Positions 41,164-63,146 of a DNA stretch of 64,000 nt are shown here, piece by piece. The notes beneath the pieces were generated by a model. It was given only the letters and a program-made list of their open reading frames with translations, was not told the origin of the DNA and did not search any database. Position 1 is the stretch's first letter, and each line of letters starts with the position of its first letter. A program made the position numbers and the translations under genes. The DNA comes from a virus (taxonomy: Duplodnaviria; Heunggongvirae; Uroviricota; Caudoviricetes): the IMG/VR virus record IMGVR_UViG_2740892441_000001, one strand, 5' to 3'.

Positions 41164-42267
41164 TCACACCGCCACTGGAACCTTGATCCACGGTAGAGGG
41201 TCATAGCCAAGAATTAAAACCTCGTCCCATTTGAAATCATCCAACTCTGACCATTCATGAGGGAAAATAACGACCGGATCTGAATGCTCTGGAGCCTGTC
41301 GTTTCATTAGCTCACACACACCTTCCATGTGGTTGTTGTACAAATGCACGTCAAAGCCAAAATGCACAAATGCACCGGCCATGTGACCCGTAATCTTCGC
41401 GAGAAAATGAGTGAGAATGCCATAGCCAGCAATATTGAATGGCATACCAACAAAAGTGTCTACGCTACGCTGTACGAGGCAGGAGTTGAGGATGCGTTTG
41501 GGGATTCCAAGTTCATCCAGTTCAGCTTCAGTAACACTGCCGTCCATCTCCAGATCGTATAGCATCTTGGTGTAGATAGACTCGTAACCGAGGCGACTGT
41601 GTTGAAGACCAATGTCAGTTGCCATCGTTAAACGGGTTTCAAAATCCAGCTCACGACTCCACAAAGAGAAGACAAAGTGGCAAGGTGGCAGTTTCATATC
41701 CTCAAGCTCGCCTACGTTCCATGCGTTAAGCATGATGCGACGATCGGTGGGGTTCGTGCGCAGTGTATCGACAATACGCTGTAGCTGATCGATTTCACGG
41801 GACAGCACTACGCGATCTTCACTGATACCCAGGTATCCCTCGACTTTGTACCCGCGTTCACGGAAAGTATCGATCTTGCTCAGATATTCACTATGGCTCA
41901 CGATGCGGGTATCTTCCCATCGACGCCACTGCTTACCGTAAACCGGCCCCAAATCGCCATTCTCATCGGCCCATGCATCCCAAATCTTAACGCCGTTATC
42001 CTTGAGAAATTGGATGTTGCCCGTGCCTTTCAGATACCACTCAAGTTCGACAAGTAGTGGCTTAAGATTTACCGCCTTTCCAGAAATAAGCGGCACAGTC
42101 CCACCAGTAAGCATGTAGTAAGAGGGAACATAGCAGGTGCTTAAAGTACCAGTGCCTGTGCGATCATCAGCCTGCACGCCGCTTTTAAGCACCGTCTCAA
42201 TAACTTTTGCATACGATGCGTTTGTTACCTGACCGTTCGTATGCTCTCGATTCAAAAGGAGTGACAC
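41164..42267 (-). CDS. thyA: Thymidylate synthase (ThyA family, with insertions)
   Basis: DRTGTGTLS, WDAWADENGDLGPVYGKQWRRW, NAWNVGELEDMKLPPCH (catalytic Cys), GMPFNIAGY, GYDPLPWIKVPVAV parallel E. coli ThyA; 367 aa versus ~264 aa. Confidence 0.88.
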   Translation of the reverse strand: MSLLLNREHTNGQVTNASYAKVIETVLKSGVQADDRTGTGTLSTCYVPSYYMLTGGTVPLISGKAVNLKPLLVELEWYLKGTGNIQFLKDNGVKIWDAWADENGDLGPVYGKQWRRWEDTRIVSHSEYLSKIDTFRERGYKVEGYLGISEDRVVLSREIDQLQRIVDTLRTNPTDRRIMLNAWNVGELEDMKLPPCHFVFSLWSRELDFETRLTMATDIGLQHSRLGYESIYTKMLYDLEMDGSVTEAELDELGIPKRILNSCLVQRSVDTFVGMPFNIAGYGILTHFLAKITGHMAGAFVHFGFDVHLYNNHMEGVCELMKRQAPEHSDPVVIFPHEWSELDDFKWDEVLILGYDPLPWIKVPVAV

Positions 42268-44627: not shown

Positions 44628-46942
44628 TCAGATTTTGCAGGCTCCGTCGCACTCATCTTCTGGCTCGACGGCTACAGCTTGCGTAAGTGGATTCTGCGCT
44701 TCGTCGTCATCACGCTTTCCTGCACCATCTCTGGTGTTGTGGTAGTAAAGCGTTTTAACTCCCATCTTGTAGGCGAGAAGCAAATCTGACAGTAGCGTCA
44801 TCATTGGGACTTTATCGCCTTCAAAGCGAGAAGGGTCATAGTTGGTATTGGCTGAAATAGCCTGGTCAAAGAACTTCTGGATGATCGCCACCTTTGTCAG
44901 ATAGCCGCGGTTGTCCGGCATATCCCACAGGTATTCATACTGTTCCTTCAGTTTTTCAAACTCAGGCACGACCATCTTGACGATGCCGTCCTTAGAAGAT
45001 TTCACTGACACCGGGCCACGAGGCGGTTCGATGCCGTTGGTGGAATTAGTGATCTGGCTGGAAGTCTCGCATGGCATTTGTGCCGTCAGTGTGGAGTTGC
45101 GAAGGCCGTATTTTGCAATACGTTCACGCAGTTCTTCCCACGGCATCTTTAACTCAAAGTTGGTTTCGCCGCTTTCGTCTAATGAAGAACGGTAATGGTC
45201 GATCGGCAACTGACCAATTGCGTATTTGGTCTGCTCAAACCAGTCACACTCACCTTTTGCTTCAGCAAGTCGGCAGCTGGCGTCAAGAAGGTAATACTGG
45301 ATAGCTTCGAACGTTTCATGCACCAGTTTATTGCCAGCGGTATCAGAATAACGAACGCCATTCTTTGCCAGGTAATAAGCAAAGTTGGTTACACCAATTC
45401 CCAGGCTACGACGAGCTTTGGCAGGCACTTCGGCTGCCTCCATCGGATAGTCTTGATAATCCAGTAACGAATCCAGTGCAGCAACGGCATAGAACGCCAC
45501 CTCTTTAAGAGACTCCAGTGAACGGATGGCTCCGAGGTTAAAAGCGGATAAAGTGCATAGCGCGATCTCACCGTTCGGGTCGTCGGTAAATGCCAGTGGA
45601 CGGGTGGGTAGAGTGATCTCCATGCACAGGTTTGACTGGCGAACAGGTGCAAGAGCAGGAATGAAAGCGCCATGCTCGTTAATATGATCGACGTTCGCAA
45701 TATAAATTCGGCCCGTGGACGCTCGTTCCTGCATCAGAGATGAGAACAGCTCAATGGCAGGTACTGACTTCTTGCGAATTGAATCATCGGCTTCGTATTT
45801 ATGGTACAGCTTTTCAAACAGATCCTGGTCTGTGAAGAAGGCTTCGTACATATCAGGCACATCATGCGGCTGAACAGAGTGATGTTCTCGCTTCTGACGA
45901 GTCGACGGTACATTAGACGGTTACTCATGACGCCGTAATCAAGATGGCGAACGCGGTTTTCATCAATACCACGGTTATTTTTCACCACCAGCAGACTTTC
46001 AACCTCAAGATGCCAAATCGGGTAAAACGCTGTTGCTGCGCCACCACGAACACCACCTTGCGAACAAGATTTAACAGCCGTCTGGAAATGCTTCAGGAAT
46101 GGAATAACTCCGGTATGGGTGGCTTCACCATTGCGGATCTCACTGCCCAGCGCACGGATACGGCCAAAACCAATACCAATTCCAGCACGACGTGAAACGT
46201 AGTCGATAATTGCGGCTGAAGCTGCACTAATCCCTTTCAGACTATCGCCAGACTCAATCAGCACACAACTGGAGAACTGACGGGTTGGAGTACGGACGCC
46301 GGCCATGATTGGTGTGGGCAGAGACAGCTTGAACGTACTTGTAACGTCATAGAAACCTTTGACCATCTCCATACGTGTTTTGCCCGCGCAGTCGTCTTCC
46401 CAATTCTGGAACAGACACATGCCCACCAGCATATAGATATGTTGCGGGCCTTCGTGAATCTCACCAGTAACACGGTTTTGAACGAGGTATTTGCTTTGCA
46501 ACTGCACCGTAGCTGCATAGCCAAAAAGATCGTCACGTTTCGGCTTAATGTAATTGCCGAGTTCTTCGATCTCTTCAAATGAATAATGTGTCAGCAAATC
46601 CTTGTCATAAACGCCCTTGTTAACGTTCTTGACAATGTGTTGGTAGAAGTTCGGATAGTCGTAACGACCGAAGGCATCTTTGCGGATTTTAAAAATGTTC
46701 AGGCGGGCAGCCACCTGCGAGTAATTTGGTGCATCTGGTGAGATCAAATCAGCGGCAGATTTAACCAAAGCCTCATGCAACTGGCTGGTGGTAATCCCAT
46801 CAAAAATGCTGGTCGCAGCTCCCATTGCTACAGCGGATGCGCTTACACCACGAATGCCTTCTACGCCATACATTACGACGCGGTTGTATTTTTCTTCGGA
46901 TAACGGCTCTGTTTGGCCGTTACGTTTTACGATGCTTATCAT
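44628..46942 (-). pseudogene. nrdA: Ribonucleotide reductase class Ia alpha subunit, split by a frameshift near 45860-45900
   Basis: N-terminal ORF 45734-46942 and C-terminal ORF 44628-45860 (ending ...ECDGACKI) together are about the length of E. coli NrdA but in different frames. Confidence 0.88.
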
Positions 46943-58211: not shown

Positions 58212-58412
58212 TTACTTCTCCTTCGAATTGATGAGTGACTTTAGAAACTTACGACCTGCAATAAACCCGATCACAGGAGCACCAAAAGCAACGATGATTC
58301 CAAGCATTACGGCAATGTCGCTTTTAGCAGAGATCAGCGACGGAACCAGCAAACAGTAGATGAAAACTACAGATAGACCTGTAACTACTGCCATAAGATA
58401 GAGTTTGATCAT
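58212..58412 (-). CDS. Small two-helix membrane protein upstream of the SPFH gene
   Basis: 66 aa hydrophobic; 4 nt upstream of the SPFH gene. Confidence 0.5.
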   Translation of the reverse strand: MIKLYLMAVVTGLSVVFIYCLLVPSLISAKSDIAVMLGIIVAFGAPVIGFIAGRKFLKSLINSKEK

Positions 58413-58505: not shown

Positions 58506-60845
58506 TTAATCTTCTAGTTCTTCTGTTGGTGATGTCTTCTCTCGTCGGTCATCTATCGCCTGTAACGCAGCAATGATTTCAGCCAGTGGCTTCTCCCGAT
58601 ACATCTCGACGATCTGCGATTTGGTGTATTTCTTGTCACCAATTTCAACTCTCCCGCTGGCGTTCTTTGGCAGGTATCCTTCTTCCAGCATGTACTCGAC
58701 GAGCGATTCGATAACGTCGAGGCCACGAGTAGGATCGAAGTAGAATTTCCAGGTGCATTTGCCATACGGTGGTGCAACTTTGTTTTTGATGCACTCTGCG
58801 CCTACGTCCTGACCGATCTTCTCTTTCCCATCCTTCATCACCGATGCACCGAGACGGATGCGCACAGAAGCGTAAAACTTCGGTGAATCGCCGCCTGGAG
58901 ACGTAGTAGGGTCGCCAAACATTACACCGATTTTTGTGCGAACCTGATTCAAGAAGATGATGCAGGCGTTGTATTTGCGTGCCCACAAAGCCAGAGTAGG
59001 GAAGTTCGCACTCGTCGCACGCGCCAGTGCCGTATTGTCGTTCATGTTTAGCTGATCTTTGTCTTTGGCTGTGCCTTCAGCCATCTTTTCGAACTTCTCG
59101 GCTTTGGAGTTCGGAACCATAGACGCAAGAGAGTCAGCCACGATACAGATAGGTGCTGATTCGGGGATAAGCTCTTCATCACGAACCAATTTAAGTATTG
59201 TGCCGATCAACTCTACAGAGTCTTCGAAGGTATCTGGCTGCTTGTATACCCACTGACCGTCATCCTCATCTGCATTCAAACCATTGGCTACAGCCAGGCC
59301 AACGTCAAAACTGTTTTCATGATCGAGGAATACCGCCAGACCATCTTGTTTTTGAGCGGAGATCATCGCTGCTGTTGCAAGGAATGTGTTGTGGCTGATA
59401 ATCCCGTTAGACCAGAAAGAGTGTGTTTCCGGCATCGCTACGTCGAACGTTGGTGCTTCACCTTCCTCAATAGCCACGACTTCGTCGTAGAACAAGTTAG
59501 AGCCAATTACCGCTGCCAGTTGTGCAAACAGATGCTCGTTAAAACGATTCTTTCTGCCAATGAAGGAGACATAGATTTCTCGCAGTTTGTCTATTCCGAC
59601 ACGATCGCCGCGGCCAATAACGTGGTCTACCAGAGCGTAGTCTTCACGGGTGGTCTTGGTGAGCGACTCGTAGAGTGATTTCACTAAGCCGCTGATGTGC
59701 GGAACATAGCCTGAGTAAGTGCGGTCAAAACCAATGTCCCGTTTGGTTGCCACTGATAAACGTGCCGGAGATTCGAAACCAATCGTTGACAGAAAAAGGT
59801 CGTAATTAGAGCCACTGAATGACAGCCGGTAATATGTATTTTCATAACCCGCGACGTGTTTTTCAGAGATAGTTGACGTAATCCCCAGATTCAGGAGCAT
59901 GAGGCGAATTTGCTGTAGCAGCAGCCCACTCGCGCTCACAACCTCAATGCAGCGACCATCATTGACGTGGCATTCCAGCTCAAAGTAGCCGCGAAGGAAT
60001 GCAATTTGAGCCTCGCTATTGGCGCGACGCACACTCAACGGAACCTGCTTGCCAGCAGCTTTCTCATACTCCAGACCATATTCTTTAAAAAGCAGCGAAC
60101 GCACCTCTTTGCTAAACAGCACATGGTCTTCCGAGCCGTTATGTTTTCTCGTAACTGGCATCTTGTCTGATACCAGCGAAATGAGGCGGTAGTACTCATC
60201 CTTGATGAAAGGATCTGTGTTAGAAAAATTCACTGAATTTTCAGAGGCCACGTATCCGTCAGCAATTAAATAGCCCATCAGTTTTGCGATATTGGCATCC
60301 AGGTGCTGATCGCCGAATTGATGTGTGCCAACCATTGAAGGAATCGTGTCGCCTACACTGATTTTTTCAGCATGTCGCCAGACGACATTACCTAAGTCGT
60401 CAACCACACGGATTGGGTGACGGAACGTAGCCTCGATATAACCGCCTGATGCCAGCTTAATACGCTTGAATTTGCGACGGTTGTTCCATGTCAGGTGTGA
60501 GGTCTTCTCTATCACGCCATTTTCATTGATGAGTCCAACGTTATGCTCTACATCGCGAGTAGTGCATGTCGCTTTGTACCCTTCAATCTCAAACAACTCT
60601 TTCACTGTTACCATTCCACGCTCCGTCAGCAGCATGGTGTCTGCGGTAACACATTTCCCCGCACTTGGAGGACCGAATACTTCGACGATACGACCACATG
60701 GGAAACCGCCATCGTAACGACCGGAAATCGCTTTGTTTAACGGAGGAAAGCCTGTGTCAATCCAATGAGTTACTTTCTGAATTTCGTCGTTGCTACCGAT
60801 TTTCTTTTTCAGAGCAAGTGCCAGTGCGGATTTTCCTTTTGCCAT
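58506..60845 (-). CDS. RecA/UvsX-like recombinase containing an intein in the Walker A P-loop
   Basis: 779 aa; extein reads FGPPSAGK | C...(422 aa)...SHN | TFLATAAM; removing residues 65-486 leaves ~357 aa, RecA-sized. Confidence 0.88.
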   Translation of the reverse strand: MAKGKSALALALKKKIGSNDEIQKVTHWIDTGFPPLNKAISGRYDGGFPCGRIVEVFGPPSAGKCVTADTMLLTERGMVTVKELFEIEGYKATCTTRDVEHNVGLINENGVIEKTSHLTWNNRRKFKRIKLASGGYIEATFRHPIRVVDDLGNVVWRHAEKISVGDTIPSMVGTHQFGDQHLDANIAKLMGYLIADGYVASENSVNFSNTDPFIKDEYYRLISLVSDKMPVTRKHNGSEDHVLFSKEVRSLLFKEYGLEYEKAAGKQVPLSVRRANSEAQIAFLRGYFELECHVNDGRCIEVVSASGLLLQQIRLMLLNLGITSTISEKHVAGYENTYYRLSFSGSNYDLFLSTIGFESPARLSVATKRDIGFDRTYSGYVPHISGLVKSLYESLTKTTREDYALVDHVIGRGDRVGIDKLREIYVSFIGRKNRFNEHLFAQLAAVIGSNLFYDEVVAIEEGEAPTFDVAMPETHSFWSNGIISHNTFLATAAMISAQKQDGLAVFLDHENSFDVGLAVANGLNADEDDGQWVYKQPDTFEDSVELIGTILKLVRDEELIPESAPICIVADSLASMVPNSKAEKFEKMAEGTAKDKDQLNMNDNTALARATSANFPTLALWARKYNACIIFLNQVRTKIGVMFGDPTTSPGGDSPKFYASVRIRLGASVMKDGKEKIGQDVGAECIKNKVAPPYGKCTWKFYFDPTRGLDVIESLVEYMLEEGYLPKNASGRVEIGDKKYTKSQIVEMYREKPLAEIIAALQAIDDRREKTSPTEELED
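59388..60653 (-). mobile_element. Intein (422 aa) with LAGLIDADG homing-endonuclease domain inside the recombinase gene
   Basis: N-terminal Cys after GPPSAGK, C-terminal His-Asn followed by Thr; LAGLIDADG-type motifs LMGYLIADGYV and IAFLRGYFELE. Confidence 0.8.
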
Positions 60846-60847
60846 GA

Positions 60848-61120
60848 TCAGGCTCCTTTTGTTTCGTTGATTCGTTTTAAAGCGGCGGATTCGTCGAATA
60901 CAATCGCATCGTGGTTAAGGAGTCTGGATACACGAGCGAGGATTTTTACGACCTGCTCGCTGACTAATCCAAACTCGCGATCTGTCGCTTTCATTCCGGC
61001 AGCGCCTAGAATTGACGGCAGTGCGATGACAGCGTACTCACCGTGATAAAAGACAATCTCTTTTGCCAGTTGGGCAGGGGTGGTTGTAGCGCCATTAATA
61101 ATCGATTTAAGCATTAGCAA
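60848..61120 (-). CDS. Hypothetical small protein
   Basis: 90 aa ORF between flap endonuclease and recombinase. Confidence 0.4.
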   Translation of the reverse strand: MLMLKSIINGATTTPAQLAKEIVFYHGEYAVIALPSILGAAGMKATDREFGLVSEQVVKILARVSRLLNHDAIVFDESAALKRINETKGA

Positions 61121-62108
61121 TACCTTTCGAATGGAAGAACAAACACTTCAAGGTCTTCAAGGAACGAACGGAAATTCAGCTCGTAGCACAGTTGCTCGAA
61201 TGCTTTCACGTCACGATTGCCTTTGATTGTTTCGATTTCGGTAGGCGGAAACTTCGTCTCAATCAGGTTCATTAGCGTGATGTTTCTCTTGAACGCTTCG
61301 AGCATTCGACAGCCTGTTTTCTCGTTGAAGGCATTCTTCGCTAGTTTGTTGAAGGCGGTCTTATGGCGTCCTTTGTCAACCACGATTGAGCCGTCGTTGA
61401 TGCCGCGTACCATCGTTGCGACACTTCCCCATTCATGCAGCAGCTCTTTCGCACCGCCAGCACCAATGCCACCAACACCGCTAATGTTGTCCGATTTATC
61501 GCCTTGTAATGCTTTTGCTTCCAAAAATGCGCGAGGAGTAGCGAATCCTGTCAGCTCCGCAAATTGCTCAAAATTAACCTGCTTGTTTTTGGCGTCTTCG
61601 CGCAGGCTTACCCAGCTTACGTTTTCGCGAACTAACTGAAGCCAGTCGCTATCGCCTGTTAACAGATAGATGTGTTCAACGGTTGGCTGCGCTGCCATGC
61701 GGGATACCAGCAGCCCGGCCAGATCATCCGCTTCTGCATCTTTTGCAATGAGTTGGGTAACTCCAAGCGCGGTCATCATTTTGAGGATGTATGGCTTCTG
61801 GATAGCAAAGCCTTCCTTCATCTTTTTCATATCAGGATCGTCGTCGCGATTTGCTTTGTAGTCCGGGTAAAAGTCGCGACGCTTGTCACTAAATCCATCC
61901 CAAAGAATCATAGGTCGGGCATGGAGGATGGAGGCATAACGACGGACGTTCTTAACAAAGCCGAAAGCAGCCTGTACTTCCATTTCGCCGTTGTGCAATT
62001 TGTCAGATTGTTGGTGGTAATAACCCAGCTATTGCCATCTACGAAGAGATAATTCACCGGTACATTCCTTCCAAAAAGTAAGGCGTCCGTAGACGCCTTA
62101 CTGGTCAC
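61114..62108 (-). pseudogene. 5'-3' exonuclease / flap endonuclease (FEN), N-terminus in a different frame (frameshift near 61990-62000)
   Basis: ORF 61908-62108 encodes ...YLFVDGNSWVI (FEN N-terminal motif); ORF 61114-61998 carries KDAEADDLAG and GDKSDNISGVGGIG (helix-hairpin-helix). Confidence 0.75.
62072..62098 (-). terminator. Rho-independent terminator (AGGCGTCTACGGACGCCT + TACTTTTT)
   Basis: Hairpin plus T-run after SSB gene. Confidence 0.7.
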
Positions 62109-62117
62109 GTAATGGGA

Positions 62118-63146
62118 TTACAGAGAGTCCAGCTCTCTCAGTAGGTCATCCAGACCTTCATCTTCCGTCGCAGATGCGGCTGCTACAGATGTCGCTGCGA
62201 CTGCTTCAGACTCTTTGACTGATACTGCAACGGCAGCGGAACTTGCTTCTGGTTTAAATTCAGTTTCAACGGCACGGAGGATTTCTTCATCAACCAGACT
62301 GGTTGGTTCAGAAGCCGGTGTGTGCGCGGTTGCTACAGCCGTCGCTCCTTCTGTATGACCAGTGACAGAGCCAAATCCAGGTAGTGCCGCAGCCGATGTT
62401 TTCGCGGTTGAGGAAATTGCTGGTGCAGATGCTGCGGCAGTTGGTGCAGCGATGCCAATCAGACGACCCATAGTGCGAACTGTCGACAGAAGACGAGTTT
62501 CATCAGCCTGATTTGCGTATGCGATCAGATCATGCTGGGTGTTCCAGAATTTATCTTCGATATCGCCTTTGTAGACTTTACGCTTAGGCGAGACGTCATA
62601 TTTGGTATCGCGACCAGAGCCAGTACGTTTAATCAGGAATGCGTAGCCTTCCTCTTTGCTCAGTGGATTGCCGATATCATCAGCGATGTCTTCGGTGATT
62701 GCTTTGCAGATATCATCGAATACAGTAGACGGCAGCTCGATTAACTGGCATTTCTCAGCATCTGCGAAATCCTCACGAGCAGAAAGAATGCCGTTGACCA
62801 GGTAGCGAGGAGTGGCACGCATTTGACCGATGCGTTCTTCCATTGCTTTGTTACCCTTGTGACGAGCGCGACCTTCCATCACCATTTCGCATAGCTGACA
62901 AGCGCGACCGTGAGTATGTTGCTCACAAATATAAGCGTTGGTTGCTTCTTTACCTTCCTCGTTCTGATACTTAACGTAGTGCATACCGAAAGTCTGGAAG
63001 AACTTACCGTTTGGGTCGTCTTTATTCGGGAAGATGCGGATATAGTTGACGCCGTCTTTTAAGCGAGTCAGATCAACGTTGTTGCCACGTTTGGCGGCAA
63101 TGTCTTCACGAGTTTTGTTAAGCAAATCAAGTAATGTCTTAGACAT
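62118..63146 (-). CDS. Single-stranded DNA-binding protein, T4 gp32-like
   Basis: His/Cys cluster YICEQHTHGRACQLCE consistent with gp32 zinc site; Ala/Ser-rich linker; acidic C-terminal tail EDEGLDDLLRELDSL. Confidence 0.65.
   Translation of the reverse strand: MSKTLLDLLNKTREDIAAKRGNNVDLTRLKDGVNYIRIFPNKDDPNGKFFQTFGMHYVKYQNEEGKEATNAYICEQHTHGRACQLCEMVMEGRARHKGNKAMEERIGQMRATPRYLVNGILSAREDFADAEKCQLIELPSTVFDDICKAITEDIADDIGNPLSKEEGYAFLIKRTGSGRDTKYDVSPKRKVYKGDIEDKFWNTQHDLIAYANQADETRLLSTVRTMGRLIGIAAPTAAASAPAISSTAKTSAAALPGFGSVTGHTEGATAVATAHTPASEPTSLVDEEILRAVETEFKPEASSAAVAVSVKESEAVAATSVAAASATEDEGLDDLLRELDSL

Follow-up and report, generated by a model that had tools for sequence, protein, structure and literature searches.

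Inteins in the ATP-binding P-loop of RecA-family recombinases are known from archaeal RadA (site c1) and from enterobacterial RecA (site c2), and independent invasion of the two was inferred by Topilina, Novikova, Stanger, Banavali and Belfort (Topilina et al., 2015; NAR 43:6631, PMC4513877). The enterobacterial element is listed there as RecA intein 'c2 (65-486)', with E. coli (including MS 145-7), Enterobacter and Salmonella as hosts; it is treated as an intein of 'E. coli RecA', and no experiments on it are reported. The gene analyzed here, from a 64,000-nucleotide stretch of viral DNA (the window), carries the same element, inserted between the Walker A Lys and Thr, with residues 65-486 and the P-loop site identical. 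The c2 intein is thus already known, being published and, for some copies, annotated by NCBI PGAP as "intein-containing recombinase RecA", and it is common in enterobacterial plasmids. Beyond the 2015 description, we find that the gene is plasmid-borne only among E. coli genomes, that it resides in SSU5-like phage-plasmids and that it is spreading laterally. Our literature searches on inteins in SSU5, LF82, E. coli RecA and Enterobacter RecA returned only that study as relevant, a search on inteins in phage-plasmids gave incidental matches only, and no experiment on splicing or cleavage of the enterobacterial c2 intein was found in the literature searched.

The c1 intein of Pyrococcus horikoshii RadA (PDB 4e2t) also follows the Walker A Lys, precedes Thr+1 and adopts a HINT fold, but it is a mini-intein devoid of an endonuclease, has little sequence similarity to c2, and its splicing is regulated by the extein. 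The mycobacterial RecA inteins (PI-MtuI, M. leprae) likewise have Cys1 and LAGLIDADG motifs, and their splicing domain is structurally similar to that of c2 (2in0, 5i0a; Foldseek). The sequence-only reading had placed them at the P-loop, which is wrong: they occupy site a (252-691) in M. tuberculosis and site b (206-570) in M. leprae (PMC4513877), residues 252 and 206 being at the monomer-monomer interface, whereas the window insertion is in the P-loop at residue 65. Their +1 residue is Cys, while that of the window intein is Thr. The family model NF007072, in which the N-extein extends to about position 253, agrees; the window precursor scores 100 bits on it, where the cut-off is 1024. Because neither the site nor the family score fits, we rejected a mycobacterial-type identity. 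Over its full 422 residues, the window intein best matches archaeal endonuclease-inteins in both structure and sequence, namely TliVMA/PhoVMA (7qss, 7qst), PI-PfuI (1dq3) and PI-PkoII (2cw7), which also combine HINT with a nested two-motif LAGLIDADG domain; their hosts are V-ATPase, RNR and DNA polymerase, and their identity to the window intein is 15-22%.

The interrupted recombinase and its phage-plasmid

The precursor is encoded by an uninterrupted ORF with an ATG start (ORF listing) and an AAGGAG Shine-Dalgarno sequence about 8 nt upstream, and phrog_9666 matches the product over 779/779 positions (1866 bits). A Walker A motif split by a 422-residue insert with LAGLIDADG blocks had been described from the sequence alone. 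Indeed, the ORF and motifs confirm this, as do Pfam matches above gathering scores (RecA, E=3.4e-36; LAGLIDADG_3, E=2.4e-17; Intein_splicing, E=2e-11). GPPSAGK (residues 58-64) is followed by Cys65, and the insert ends with SHN at residue 486, directly before Thr487, which restores Walker A as GPPSAGKT. The features of the locus are as follows.

58506..60845, minus strand: precursor gene, RecA-family recombinase plus intein, 779 aa plus stop (single ORF; Pfam; phrog_9666)
60654..60845, minus strand: N-extein, residues 1-64; its last residues, GPPSAGK of Walker A, lie at 60654-60674 (translation; RecA alignment)
59388..60653, minus strand: intein, precursor residues 65-486, 422 aa, Cys1 to Asn422 (intein-less alleles; TIGR01445, TIGR01443)
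60324..60653, minus strand: N-terminal part of HINT, intein 1-110; carries Cys1 of block A and, at 60417-60428, the block B motif TFRH (AF2 beta-strands; mini-intein matches)
59499..60323, minus strand: predicted LAGLIDADG homing-endonuclease domain, intein 111-385 (PF14528; TliVMA alignment; Foldseek match to I-DmoI; dN/dS)
60249-60281, minus strand: LAGLIDADG motif 1, LMGYLIADGYV, intein 125-135, with Asp132 (motif position)
59964-59999, minus strand: LAGLIDADG motif 2, FLRGYFELECHV, intein 219-230, with Glu227 (motif position)
59388..59498, minus strand: C-terminal part of HINT, intein 386-422, blocks F/G, ending His421-Asn422 (TIGR01443)
58506..59387, minus strand: C-extein, residues 487-779 plus stop, starting at Thr+1 (59385-59387) (translation; RecA alignment)
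60848-61120, minus strand: small ORF, phrog_2207, upstream gene in the same recombination module (PHROG match)
61114-61998, minus strand: 5'-3' exonuclease, upstream gene in the same module (PHROG match)
62118-63146, minus strand: gp32-like SSB, upstream gene in the same module, which spans 60848..63146 (PHROG match)

The spliced extein (1-64 + 487-779) aligns without gaps to E. coli RecA through the GPPSAGKT that splicing would restore; the N-extein pairs with GRIVEIYGPESSGK of E. coli RecA, and the C-extein alignment is continuous, including the E96-, Walker B- and L2-equivalent segments. It matches Pfam RecA at E=2e-42 (145.7 bits against 27), RecA structures at about 1e-34 and phrog_97, 'UvsX-like', at E=1e-91. 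It shares the RecA core with the bacterial protein (E. coli RecA, 3cmu) and resembles RecA far more closely than it does T4 UvsX (3io5, E=1e-5). Its score against the recA equivalog TIGR02012 is 153.7 bits, below the cut-off of 325.3, and we therefore regard it as a phage-type paralogue rather than cellular RecA. As to phage UvsX/RecA systems, the neighboring genes here include the gp32-like SSB and the exonuclease. The gene order of the module is syntenic with the annotated loci of phages Cyrano and SSU5, and the Cyrano record has a UvsY-like mediator annotated beside its SSB and exonuclease genes.

The closest match of the window is E. coli phage Cyrano/pLF82 (98.8% identity to Cyrano), and terminase, portal and RepA-like genes all lie within it. 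By synteny, by identity and by the presence of phage structural and plasmid replication genes in one replicon, the host element is an SSU5-like phage-plasmid. Cyrano produces virions (PMC9928086) and carries a 98.8% identical intein-plus gene. Across 5,426 E. coli genomes, the gene was found at 252 plasmid places and at no chromosomal one.

Splicing and endonuclease domains

All residues looked for as splicing blocks are present. The precursor Cys65 is the class-1 nucleophile Cys1 and is conserved in relatives; block B reads T76-F-R-H79 and aligns with AT.NHP in relatives; and the insert ends in H485-N486 (intein H421-N422), with Thr487 as the +1 residue. The NCBIfam models of the intein N-terminal region (TIGR01445, 35.5 bits against a cut-off of 24.5) and C-terminal region (TIGR01443, 17.8 against 15.6) both match. 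The HINT fold is recovered by PF14890 (44.3 bits against 35.8) and by Foldseek matches to solved inteins, the best being TliVMA 7qss (E=2.5e-19, TMq 0.68), alongside PI-PfuI, PI-PkoII, PI-SceI, mini-inteins and I-DmoI. The AF2 model of the intein has a pLDDT of 79.8 and a pTM of 0.83, and is poor (pLDDT <50) at residues 409-422, the site of the C-terminal active site. In the C-terminal part the pattern PTFDV..PETHSFWSNG.ISHN is kept in relatives, and not a single substitution separates the compared E. coli-, Klebsiella- and Enterobacter-type copies there, while the more divergent E. albertii copy does differ. Judged by sequence and model, the insert is a class-1 intein that we infer to splice.

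The endonuclease domain matches PF14528 (E=4e-18) and contains two motifs, LMGYLIADG with Asp132 and FLRGYFELE with Glu227, both of which align with their counterparts in the TliVMA intein: the latter also has GYLIADG, and the acidic residues of the second motif coincide. Motif 2 is atypical, with ELEC in place of DxDG. Foldseek matches the domain to I-DmoI and the entire insert to full endonuclease-inteins. We thus predict a two-motif endonuclease nested in the HINT domain, with Asp132 and Glu227 as putative catalytic residues.

Among related RecA P-loop inteins, P0007 (carried by a metagenome-assembled genome), P0012 and P0013 are without one or both LAGLIDADG motifs.

Empty alleles, lateral spread and selection

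Intein-less alleles occur in phages CMS-2020a and SSU5 and in Klebsiella, Enterobacter and Escherichia plasmids. In these homologues GPPSAGK is joined directly to TFLATAAM, exactly at the intein borders, and the predicted spliced product equals their product residue for residue. In phage CMS-2020a, the DNA at the insertion point reads ...GGTCCTCCAAGTGCAGGGAAA^ACGTTCCTTGCAACAGCAGCG.... These alleles, together with the extein alignment, support the original reading of the locus as a phage-type RecA-family recombinase with a P-loop LAGLIDADG intein. A word-index protein search, of limited sensitivity, gave 13 matches; an exhaustive representative search revealed the family size, and P-loop inteins, this element among them, form a very large family. 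Among 829 plasmid records with the recombinase recA, 248 are intein-plus and 569 have an uninterrupted junction, an occupancy of about 30%. The insert is full-length in 240 records, and an assembly artefact was rejected because these are independent copies. In plasmid NZ_CP146657.1 of E. coli MS 145-7, the intein DNA is 100% identical to the window. Broken copies of the gene also exist: the C-extein is frameshifted in E. albertii p3RM15112, and CP059946.1 has an IS-like insertion of about 770 bp. As plasmids still carry such disrupted copies, plasmid maintenance may not require the recombinase, and its earlier description as an 'essential' recombination gene is unproven.

The intein is 96.8-99.8% identical across backbones whose exteins are 82-85% identical. 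In comparisons of divergence and flanks that covered 12 alleles out of the 829 records, the window and the Klebsiella-type allele differ by a dS of 0.09 in the intein versus 1.9 in the C-extein (C-extein dN 0.022), and the Klebsiella-type and Enterobacter-type inteins differ by 2 nt (dS 0.003) versus an extein dS of 1.2. The extein dS between Klebsiella intein-plus and intein-minus alleles is 0.05. The synonymous flanks, GCG GGG AAA before and ACA after the insertion point, are common to 6/6 intein-plus alleles, and 6/6 intein-minus alleles, from three lineages, differ from them at -7 and +3. In three different backbones, the tract of high identity stops about 3-16 nt from the intein borders. 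Occupancy is thus sporadic, the intein is younger than its host gene and the flanks are co-converted, the population signature of homing. From these comparisons the intein looks recently mobile and appears to be so still, and the earlier suggestion of a homing element, here taken as active now or until recently, gains support from the intein/extein divergence and the flanks. No compositional break was seen at the intein borders in the GC-content and skew profile across the gene, and this profile was therefore uninformative.

Judged by substitution counts, both parts of the gene are under purifying selection. The intein has a dN/dS of 0.15 (p=3e-8, from 25 synonymous and 13 non-synonymous changes; comparison with the E. 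albertii copy gives 57:19, p=2e-21), and the endonuclease domain alone has a dN/dS of 0.20. Selection on the exteins of intein-plus alleles is strong, with 17 synonymous and 0 non-synonymous changes between the window and Cyrano, and it lends the predicted splicing indirect support.

A probable homing intein and its alternatives

We consider it likely, at a probability of roughly 0.88, that the element is a P-loop class-1 homing intein in the RecA-family strand-exchange ATPase of a phage-plasmid, with its splicing and cleavage predicted. Translation would yield the 779-aa precursor, which could not form its ATP-binding loop because the 422-aa intein blocks it between Lys64 and Thr487. The steps of splicing would follow the standard class-1 intein pathway. 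An N-S acyl shift at Cys65 would be followed by trans-esterification onto the Thr487 hydroxyl, cyclisation of Asn486 aided by His485 and an O-N shift, releasing the free intein and a 357-aa recombinase with an intact GPPSAGKT. When phage-plasmids share a cell, the free intein, as the predicted endonuclease, would cut the uninterrupted P-loop DNA of an intein-less recA, its putative target being TTCGGTCCTCCAAGTGCAGGGAAA^ACGTTCCTTGCAACAGCAGCGATG, and repair of the break from the intein-bearing copy would convert the empty allele. On balance, we favor the view that the intein is now sweeping by homing through diverged SSU5-like phage-plasmids of Escherichia, Klebsiella and Enterobacter.

A challenge to homing would be an intein that still splices while its endonuclease is dead, so that its distribution reflected vertical descent and ordinary homologous recombination. 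Homing endonucleases commonly decay after fixation, and the three relatives that have lost one or both motifs are in line with this. General recombination does occur at the recombinase locus, because plasmid pHXH-2 (L014) is a mosaic of an E. coli-type N-extein and an SSU5-type C-extein, and ordinary recombination between co-resident plasmids could in principle account for the lateral spread. However, neither motif has been lost here and each keeps its acidic residue, the endonuclease domain has the low dN/dS given above, the stretch of high identity breaks off about 3-16 nt from the borders, as break repair at the insertion point would predict, and occupancy is intermediate (~30%) rather than fixed; we therefore regard a dead endonuclease as unlikely. 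A non-splicing domain insertion, leaving an inactivated recombinase or pseudogene, could draw on the broken copies in E. albertii p3RM15112 and CP059946.1, but it was rejected as highly improbable, since all splicing residues are conserved, the intein-plus exteins are under strong purifying selection (17 : 0 versus Cyrano; dN 0.022 / dS 1.9) and the borders match the empty alleles to the residue.

The intein might also have been co-opted as a conditional switch that keeps the ATPase inactive while the element is a plasmid (the lysogenic state) and splices on a signal such as DNA damage, a reading compatible with a homing intein. In P. horikoshii, the RadA intein occupies the equivalent position in the P-loop, and its conditional splicing is controlled by the extein (PMC4513877), and genotoxic stress induces Cyrano (PMC9928086). 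On the other hand, about 70% of the related plasmids do without the intein, and RadA-like locking of extein and intein was not feasible in precursor models (Topilina et al., PMC4513877); such a switch is doubtful in our view. If it were true, the recombinase would be ATPase-dead during plasmid maintenance and released on induction or DNA damage.

As a discovery the c2 intein matters little, being published, NCBI-annotated and part of a very large family. Its setting changes how it is read: the 'first E. coli intein, in RecA' of the literature is not in chromosomal recA but in the recombinase of a phage-plasmid, of a type that is widespread and often accompanies clinical Enterobacteriaceae. Almost the same intein in backbones that have diverged strongly, together with synonymous flanks that were co-converted, would make a clean natural example of ongoing homing and would mean that phage-plasmids of different lineages come together in one cell. 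If the intein is indeed sweeping by homing, it would offer a natural marker for tracing co-infection among SSU5-like phage-plasmids.

Precursor gene, insert and fold

The sequence-only reading had described a RecA/UvsX-like recombinase whose P-loop is split by a LAGLIDADG intein, and all of its coordinates and residue numbers for precursor and insert agreed with our ORF listing and translation:

58506..60845, minus strand: precursor ORF, recombinase plus intein; single unbroken ORF, 779 aa, ATG start
59388-60653, minus strand: intein; 422-aa insert in the precursor ORF

An AAGGAG ribosome-binding site lies immediately upstream of the precursor ORF. Precursor residues 58-64 read GPPSAGK and are followed by Cys65, and the insert ends in His485-Asn486, followed by Thr487. 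Pfam profiles for RecA (E=3.4e-36), LAGLIDADG_3 (E=2.4e-17) and Intein_splicing all matched the precursor, the last at 44.3 bits where the cut-off is 35.8, and the NCBIfam models for the intein N-terminus and C-terminus each scored above their own thresholds.

The insert also resembles known inteins in its splicing motifs, sequence and predicted fold. It carries Cys1, block B (T76-F-R-H79), blocks F/G with SHN as the last residues, and two LAGLIDADG motifs, LMGYLIADGYV and FLRGYFELECHV. The closest solved proteins by sequence are Thermococcus/Pyrococcus VMA inteins, PI-PkoII and PI-PfuI; in the alignment the TliVMA intein has an identical first motif (GYLIADG), and the Asp in its second motif aligns with the second acidic residue of the window intein, Glu227. 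An AlphaFold2 model built on ten relatives (pLDDT 79.8, pTM 0.83; weak at intein residues 409-422) was matched by Foldseek to the full endonuclease-inteins 7qss (E=2.5e-19, TMq 0.68), 1dq3, 2cw7 and PI-SceI; ranked lower were mini-inteins, including those of P. horikoshii RadA and M. tuberculosis RecA, and a match of the endonuclease domain to I-DmoI.

We considered whether the insert could instead be an ordinary domain of this recombinase family. Homologues lacking it do exist, but they are joined exactly at the intein borders, which rules this out: phages CMS-2020a and SSU5 encode 357-358-aa proteins reading GPPSAGK|TFLATAAM, precisely the predicted ligation product (95-97% DNA identity between the CMS-2020a and window exteins), and the same junction is found in intein-minus plasmid alleles of Klebsiella, Enterobacter, E. 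coli and E. fergusonii. This makes the insert a separate element whose borders are defined to the residue.

The recombinase and its phage-plasmid setting

With the insert removed, the extein gave a single continuous Pfam RecA match (E=2.3e-42), and the joined extein aligned to E. coli RecA without gaps over GRIVE.(F/Y)GP.S.GKT and onward through the equivalents of Glu96, Walker B and L2. It also matched phrog_97 'UvsX-like recombinase', although it is far nearer to RecA than to T4 UvsX. Judged by these profiles it is a RecA-family protein, under the cut-off of the cellular-RecA equivalog model (153.7 bits against 325.3).

The gene had been called phage-encoded, correctly so if a phage-plasmid is meant. 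It shares 98.8% identity with its counterpart in Escherichia phage Cyrano, known in E. coli LF82 as plasmid pLF82; Cyrano is a siphovirus phage-plasmid that is functional and can be induced (PMC9928086). The gene order around recA is conserved in Cyrano and in Salmonella phage SSU5:

SPFH protein, small membrane protein, recA, small ORF, 5'-3' exonuclease, gp32-like SSB

The Cyrano record annotates a UvsY-like gene directly past this neighbourhood; elsewhere the window encodes terminase, portal, helicase, SbcCD, RNR, ThyX and a RepA-like gene. The recA gene was present in 250 of 5,426 complete E. coli genomes, always on a plasmid and never on the chromosome, with the intein in 114 copies.

Three further features of the window were seen in passing. 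The 66-aa membrane-protein gene directly downstream of recA (58212-58412, minus strand) is only 79-80% identical to that of CMS-2020a and E. albertii, while the genes either side are 93-99% identical (C-extein 93-95%, SPFH ~99%), which makes it a small divergent allelic cassette. The RNR alpha gene (44628-46942, minus strand) is split near 45869 into overlapping ORFs, 45734..46942 and 44628..45860; relative to the single 2316-nt CDS of Cyrano one nucleotide is missing (TTCAG-CCGC) and the remainder is 98.8% identical, so the split reflects either a genuine frameshift or a mistake in assembling a homopolymer. Lastly, a 367-aa ORF (41164-42267, minus strand) matches thymidylate synthase PHROG families, its syntenic gene in Cyrano being annotated 'ThyX Thymidylate synthase'; with the RNR subunit genes it forms a nucleotide-metabolism block, to which Cyrano adds MazG-like, polynucleotide kinase and DHFR genes.

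Spread, constraint and probable activity

A blastn search of plasmid records with a 492-nt joined N-/C-extein query found 829 records with a window-type recA, the junction being uninterrupted in 569. The intein alone was found in 248 plasmid records (240 full-length, all at least 90% identical), from Escherichia (123), Klebsiella (71), Enterobacter (41), Citrobacter (6) and others; occupancy was 0/63 in Yersinia and 1/49 in Salmonella.

Divergence and flanks were compared in twelve alleles, six with and six without the intein. Between backbones of E. coli, SSU5/Enterobacter and Klebsiella type, intein identity stays at 96.8-99.8%, whereas the exteins are only 82-85% and flanking genes 72-82% identical. 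The window and the Klebsiella-type allele have a synonymous divergence of 0.09 in the intein, as against 1.9 in the C-extein; for Klebsiella-type versus Enterobacter-type the figures are 0.003 in the intein, where 2 nt in 1266 differ, and 1.2 in the extein. The exteins of one intein-plus and one intein-minus Klebsiella allele differ by only 0.05. All six intein-plus alleles share the synonymous flanks ...GCG GGG AAA | intein | ACA TTC CT..., while the six intein-minus alleles all depart from this, with A, C or T at -7 and G or C at +3 depending on the lineage; close to the junction, the Klebsiella pair shows virtually no other extein differences. Such a pattern is what short co-conversion tracts leave behind where a break has been repaired. 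A mosaic allele on E. coli pHXH-2 (NZ_MH257954.1), with an E. coli-type N-extein, an SSU5/Enterobacter-type C-extein and an intein 99.8% identical to that of the window, suggests a crossover at or beside the intein.

The intein has a dN/dS of 0.15 overall (25:13, p=3e-8) and 0.20 in the endonuclease domain, and comparison with the most divergent copy, from E. albertii, gave 57:19 (p=2e-21), pointing to purifying selection. The exteins of intein-plus alleles are constrained as well (17 synonymous and 0 non-synonymous differences between window and Cyrano), which argues that the recombinase is still made and thus that the intein splices. An active or decaying homing element had been proposed; divergence, flanks and purifying selection together suggest that the intein splices and that its endonuclease is active, or was so until very recently.

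Two copies are disrupted. That on E. albertii p3RM15112 (CP043255.1; 94% identity) retains all 422 intein codons within a broken recombinase gene, the C-extein being frameshifted past codon 128. An E. coli plasmid (CP059946.1) has a ~770-bp insertion, probably an IS1-like element, in the intein coding region (equivalent to window ~60223-60230), with an 8-bp target duplication; the interrupted gene carries no annotation in that record.

Related inteins and published precedent

Searched exhaustively, 1.84 billion representative proteins yielded 189 relatives at E<=1e-30. We surveyed 160 proteins, comprising the best representatives listed and earlier matches: 101 have a RecA-like extein, 91 of them with the intein directly after the Walker A 'GK', so the RecA P-loop is a commonly occupied intein site. 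In another 34 the intein follows the 'GK' of other ATPases; P0055, P0065, P0120 and P0128 are examples of such non-RecA hosts. Among their flanks, ...AGSGK|C...HN|TRVLT is reminiscent of helicase motif I, and ...ATNGGK|C...HN|TE... recurs in ~1000-aa proteins. Three P-loop relatives in canonical cellular-type RecA (P0007, at L008 3001-5166 with its gene on a 550-kb contig, P0012 and P0013) have lost one or both LAGLIDADG motifs, so that their endonucleases have decayed, unlike the phage-plasmid intein, which retains both.

The window intein is already known: of the five RadA/RecA insertion points defined by Topilina, Novikova, Stanger, Banavali and Belfort (NAR 2015; PMC4513877), 'c2 (65-486)' is entered in their Table 1 for eight strains of E. 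coli, two of Enterobacter and one Salmonella. The plasmid intein DNA of MS 145-7, a c2-listed strain, is 100% identical to the window, and PGAP annotates the gene variously as 'LAGLIDADG family homing endonuclease', 'Hint domain-containing protein' or 'intein-containing recombinase RecA'. The likening to P-loop inteins of mycobacterial RecA was wrong, because in that Table 1 the M. tuberculosis intein occupies 252-691 (site a) and that of M. leprae 206-570 (site b) (PMC4513877); the true P-loop precedents are archaeal RadA (site c1) and the c2 element itself. Save for that comparison and the unproven label 'essential' given to the gene, the observation was confirmed and its interpretation supported. 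Our literature search found no paper tying the intein to SSU5-type phage-plasmids or testing it experimentally. What the present analysis adds is the right genomic context, a phage-plasmid and not a chromosomal recA, and sequence-level evidence of ongoing lateral spread.
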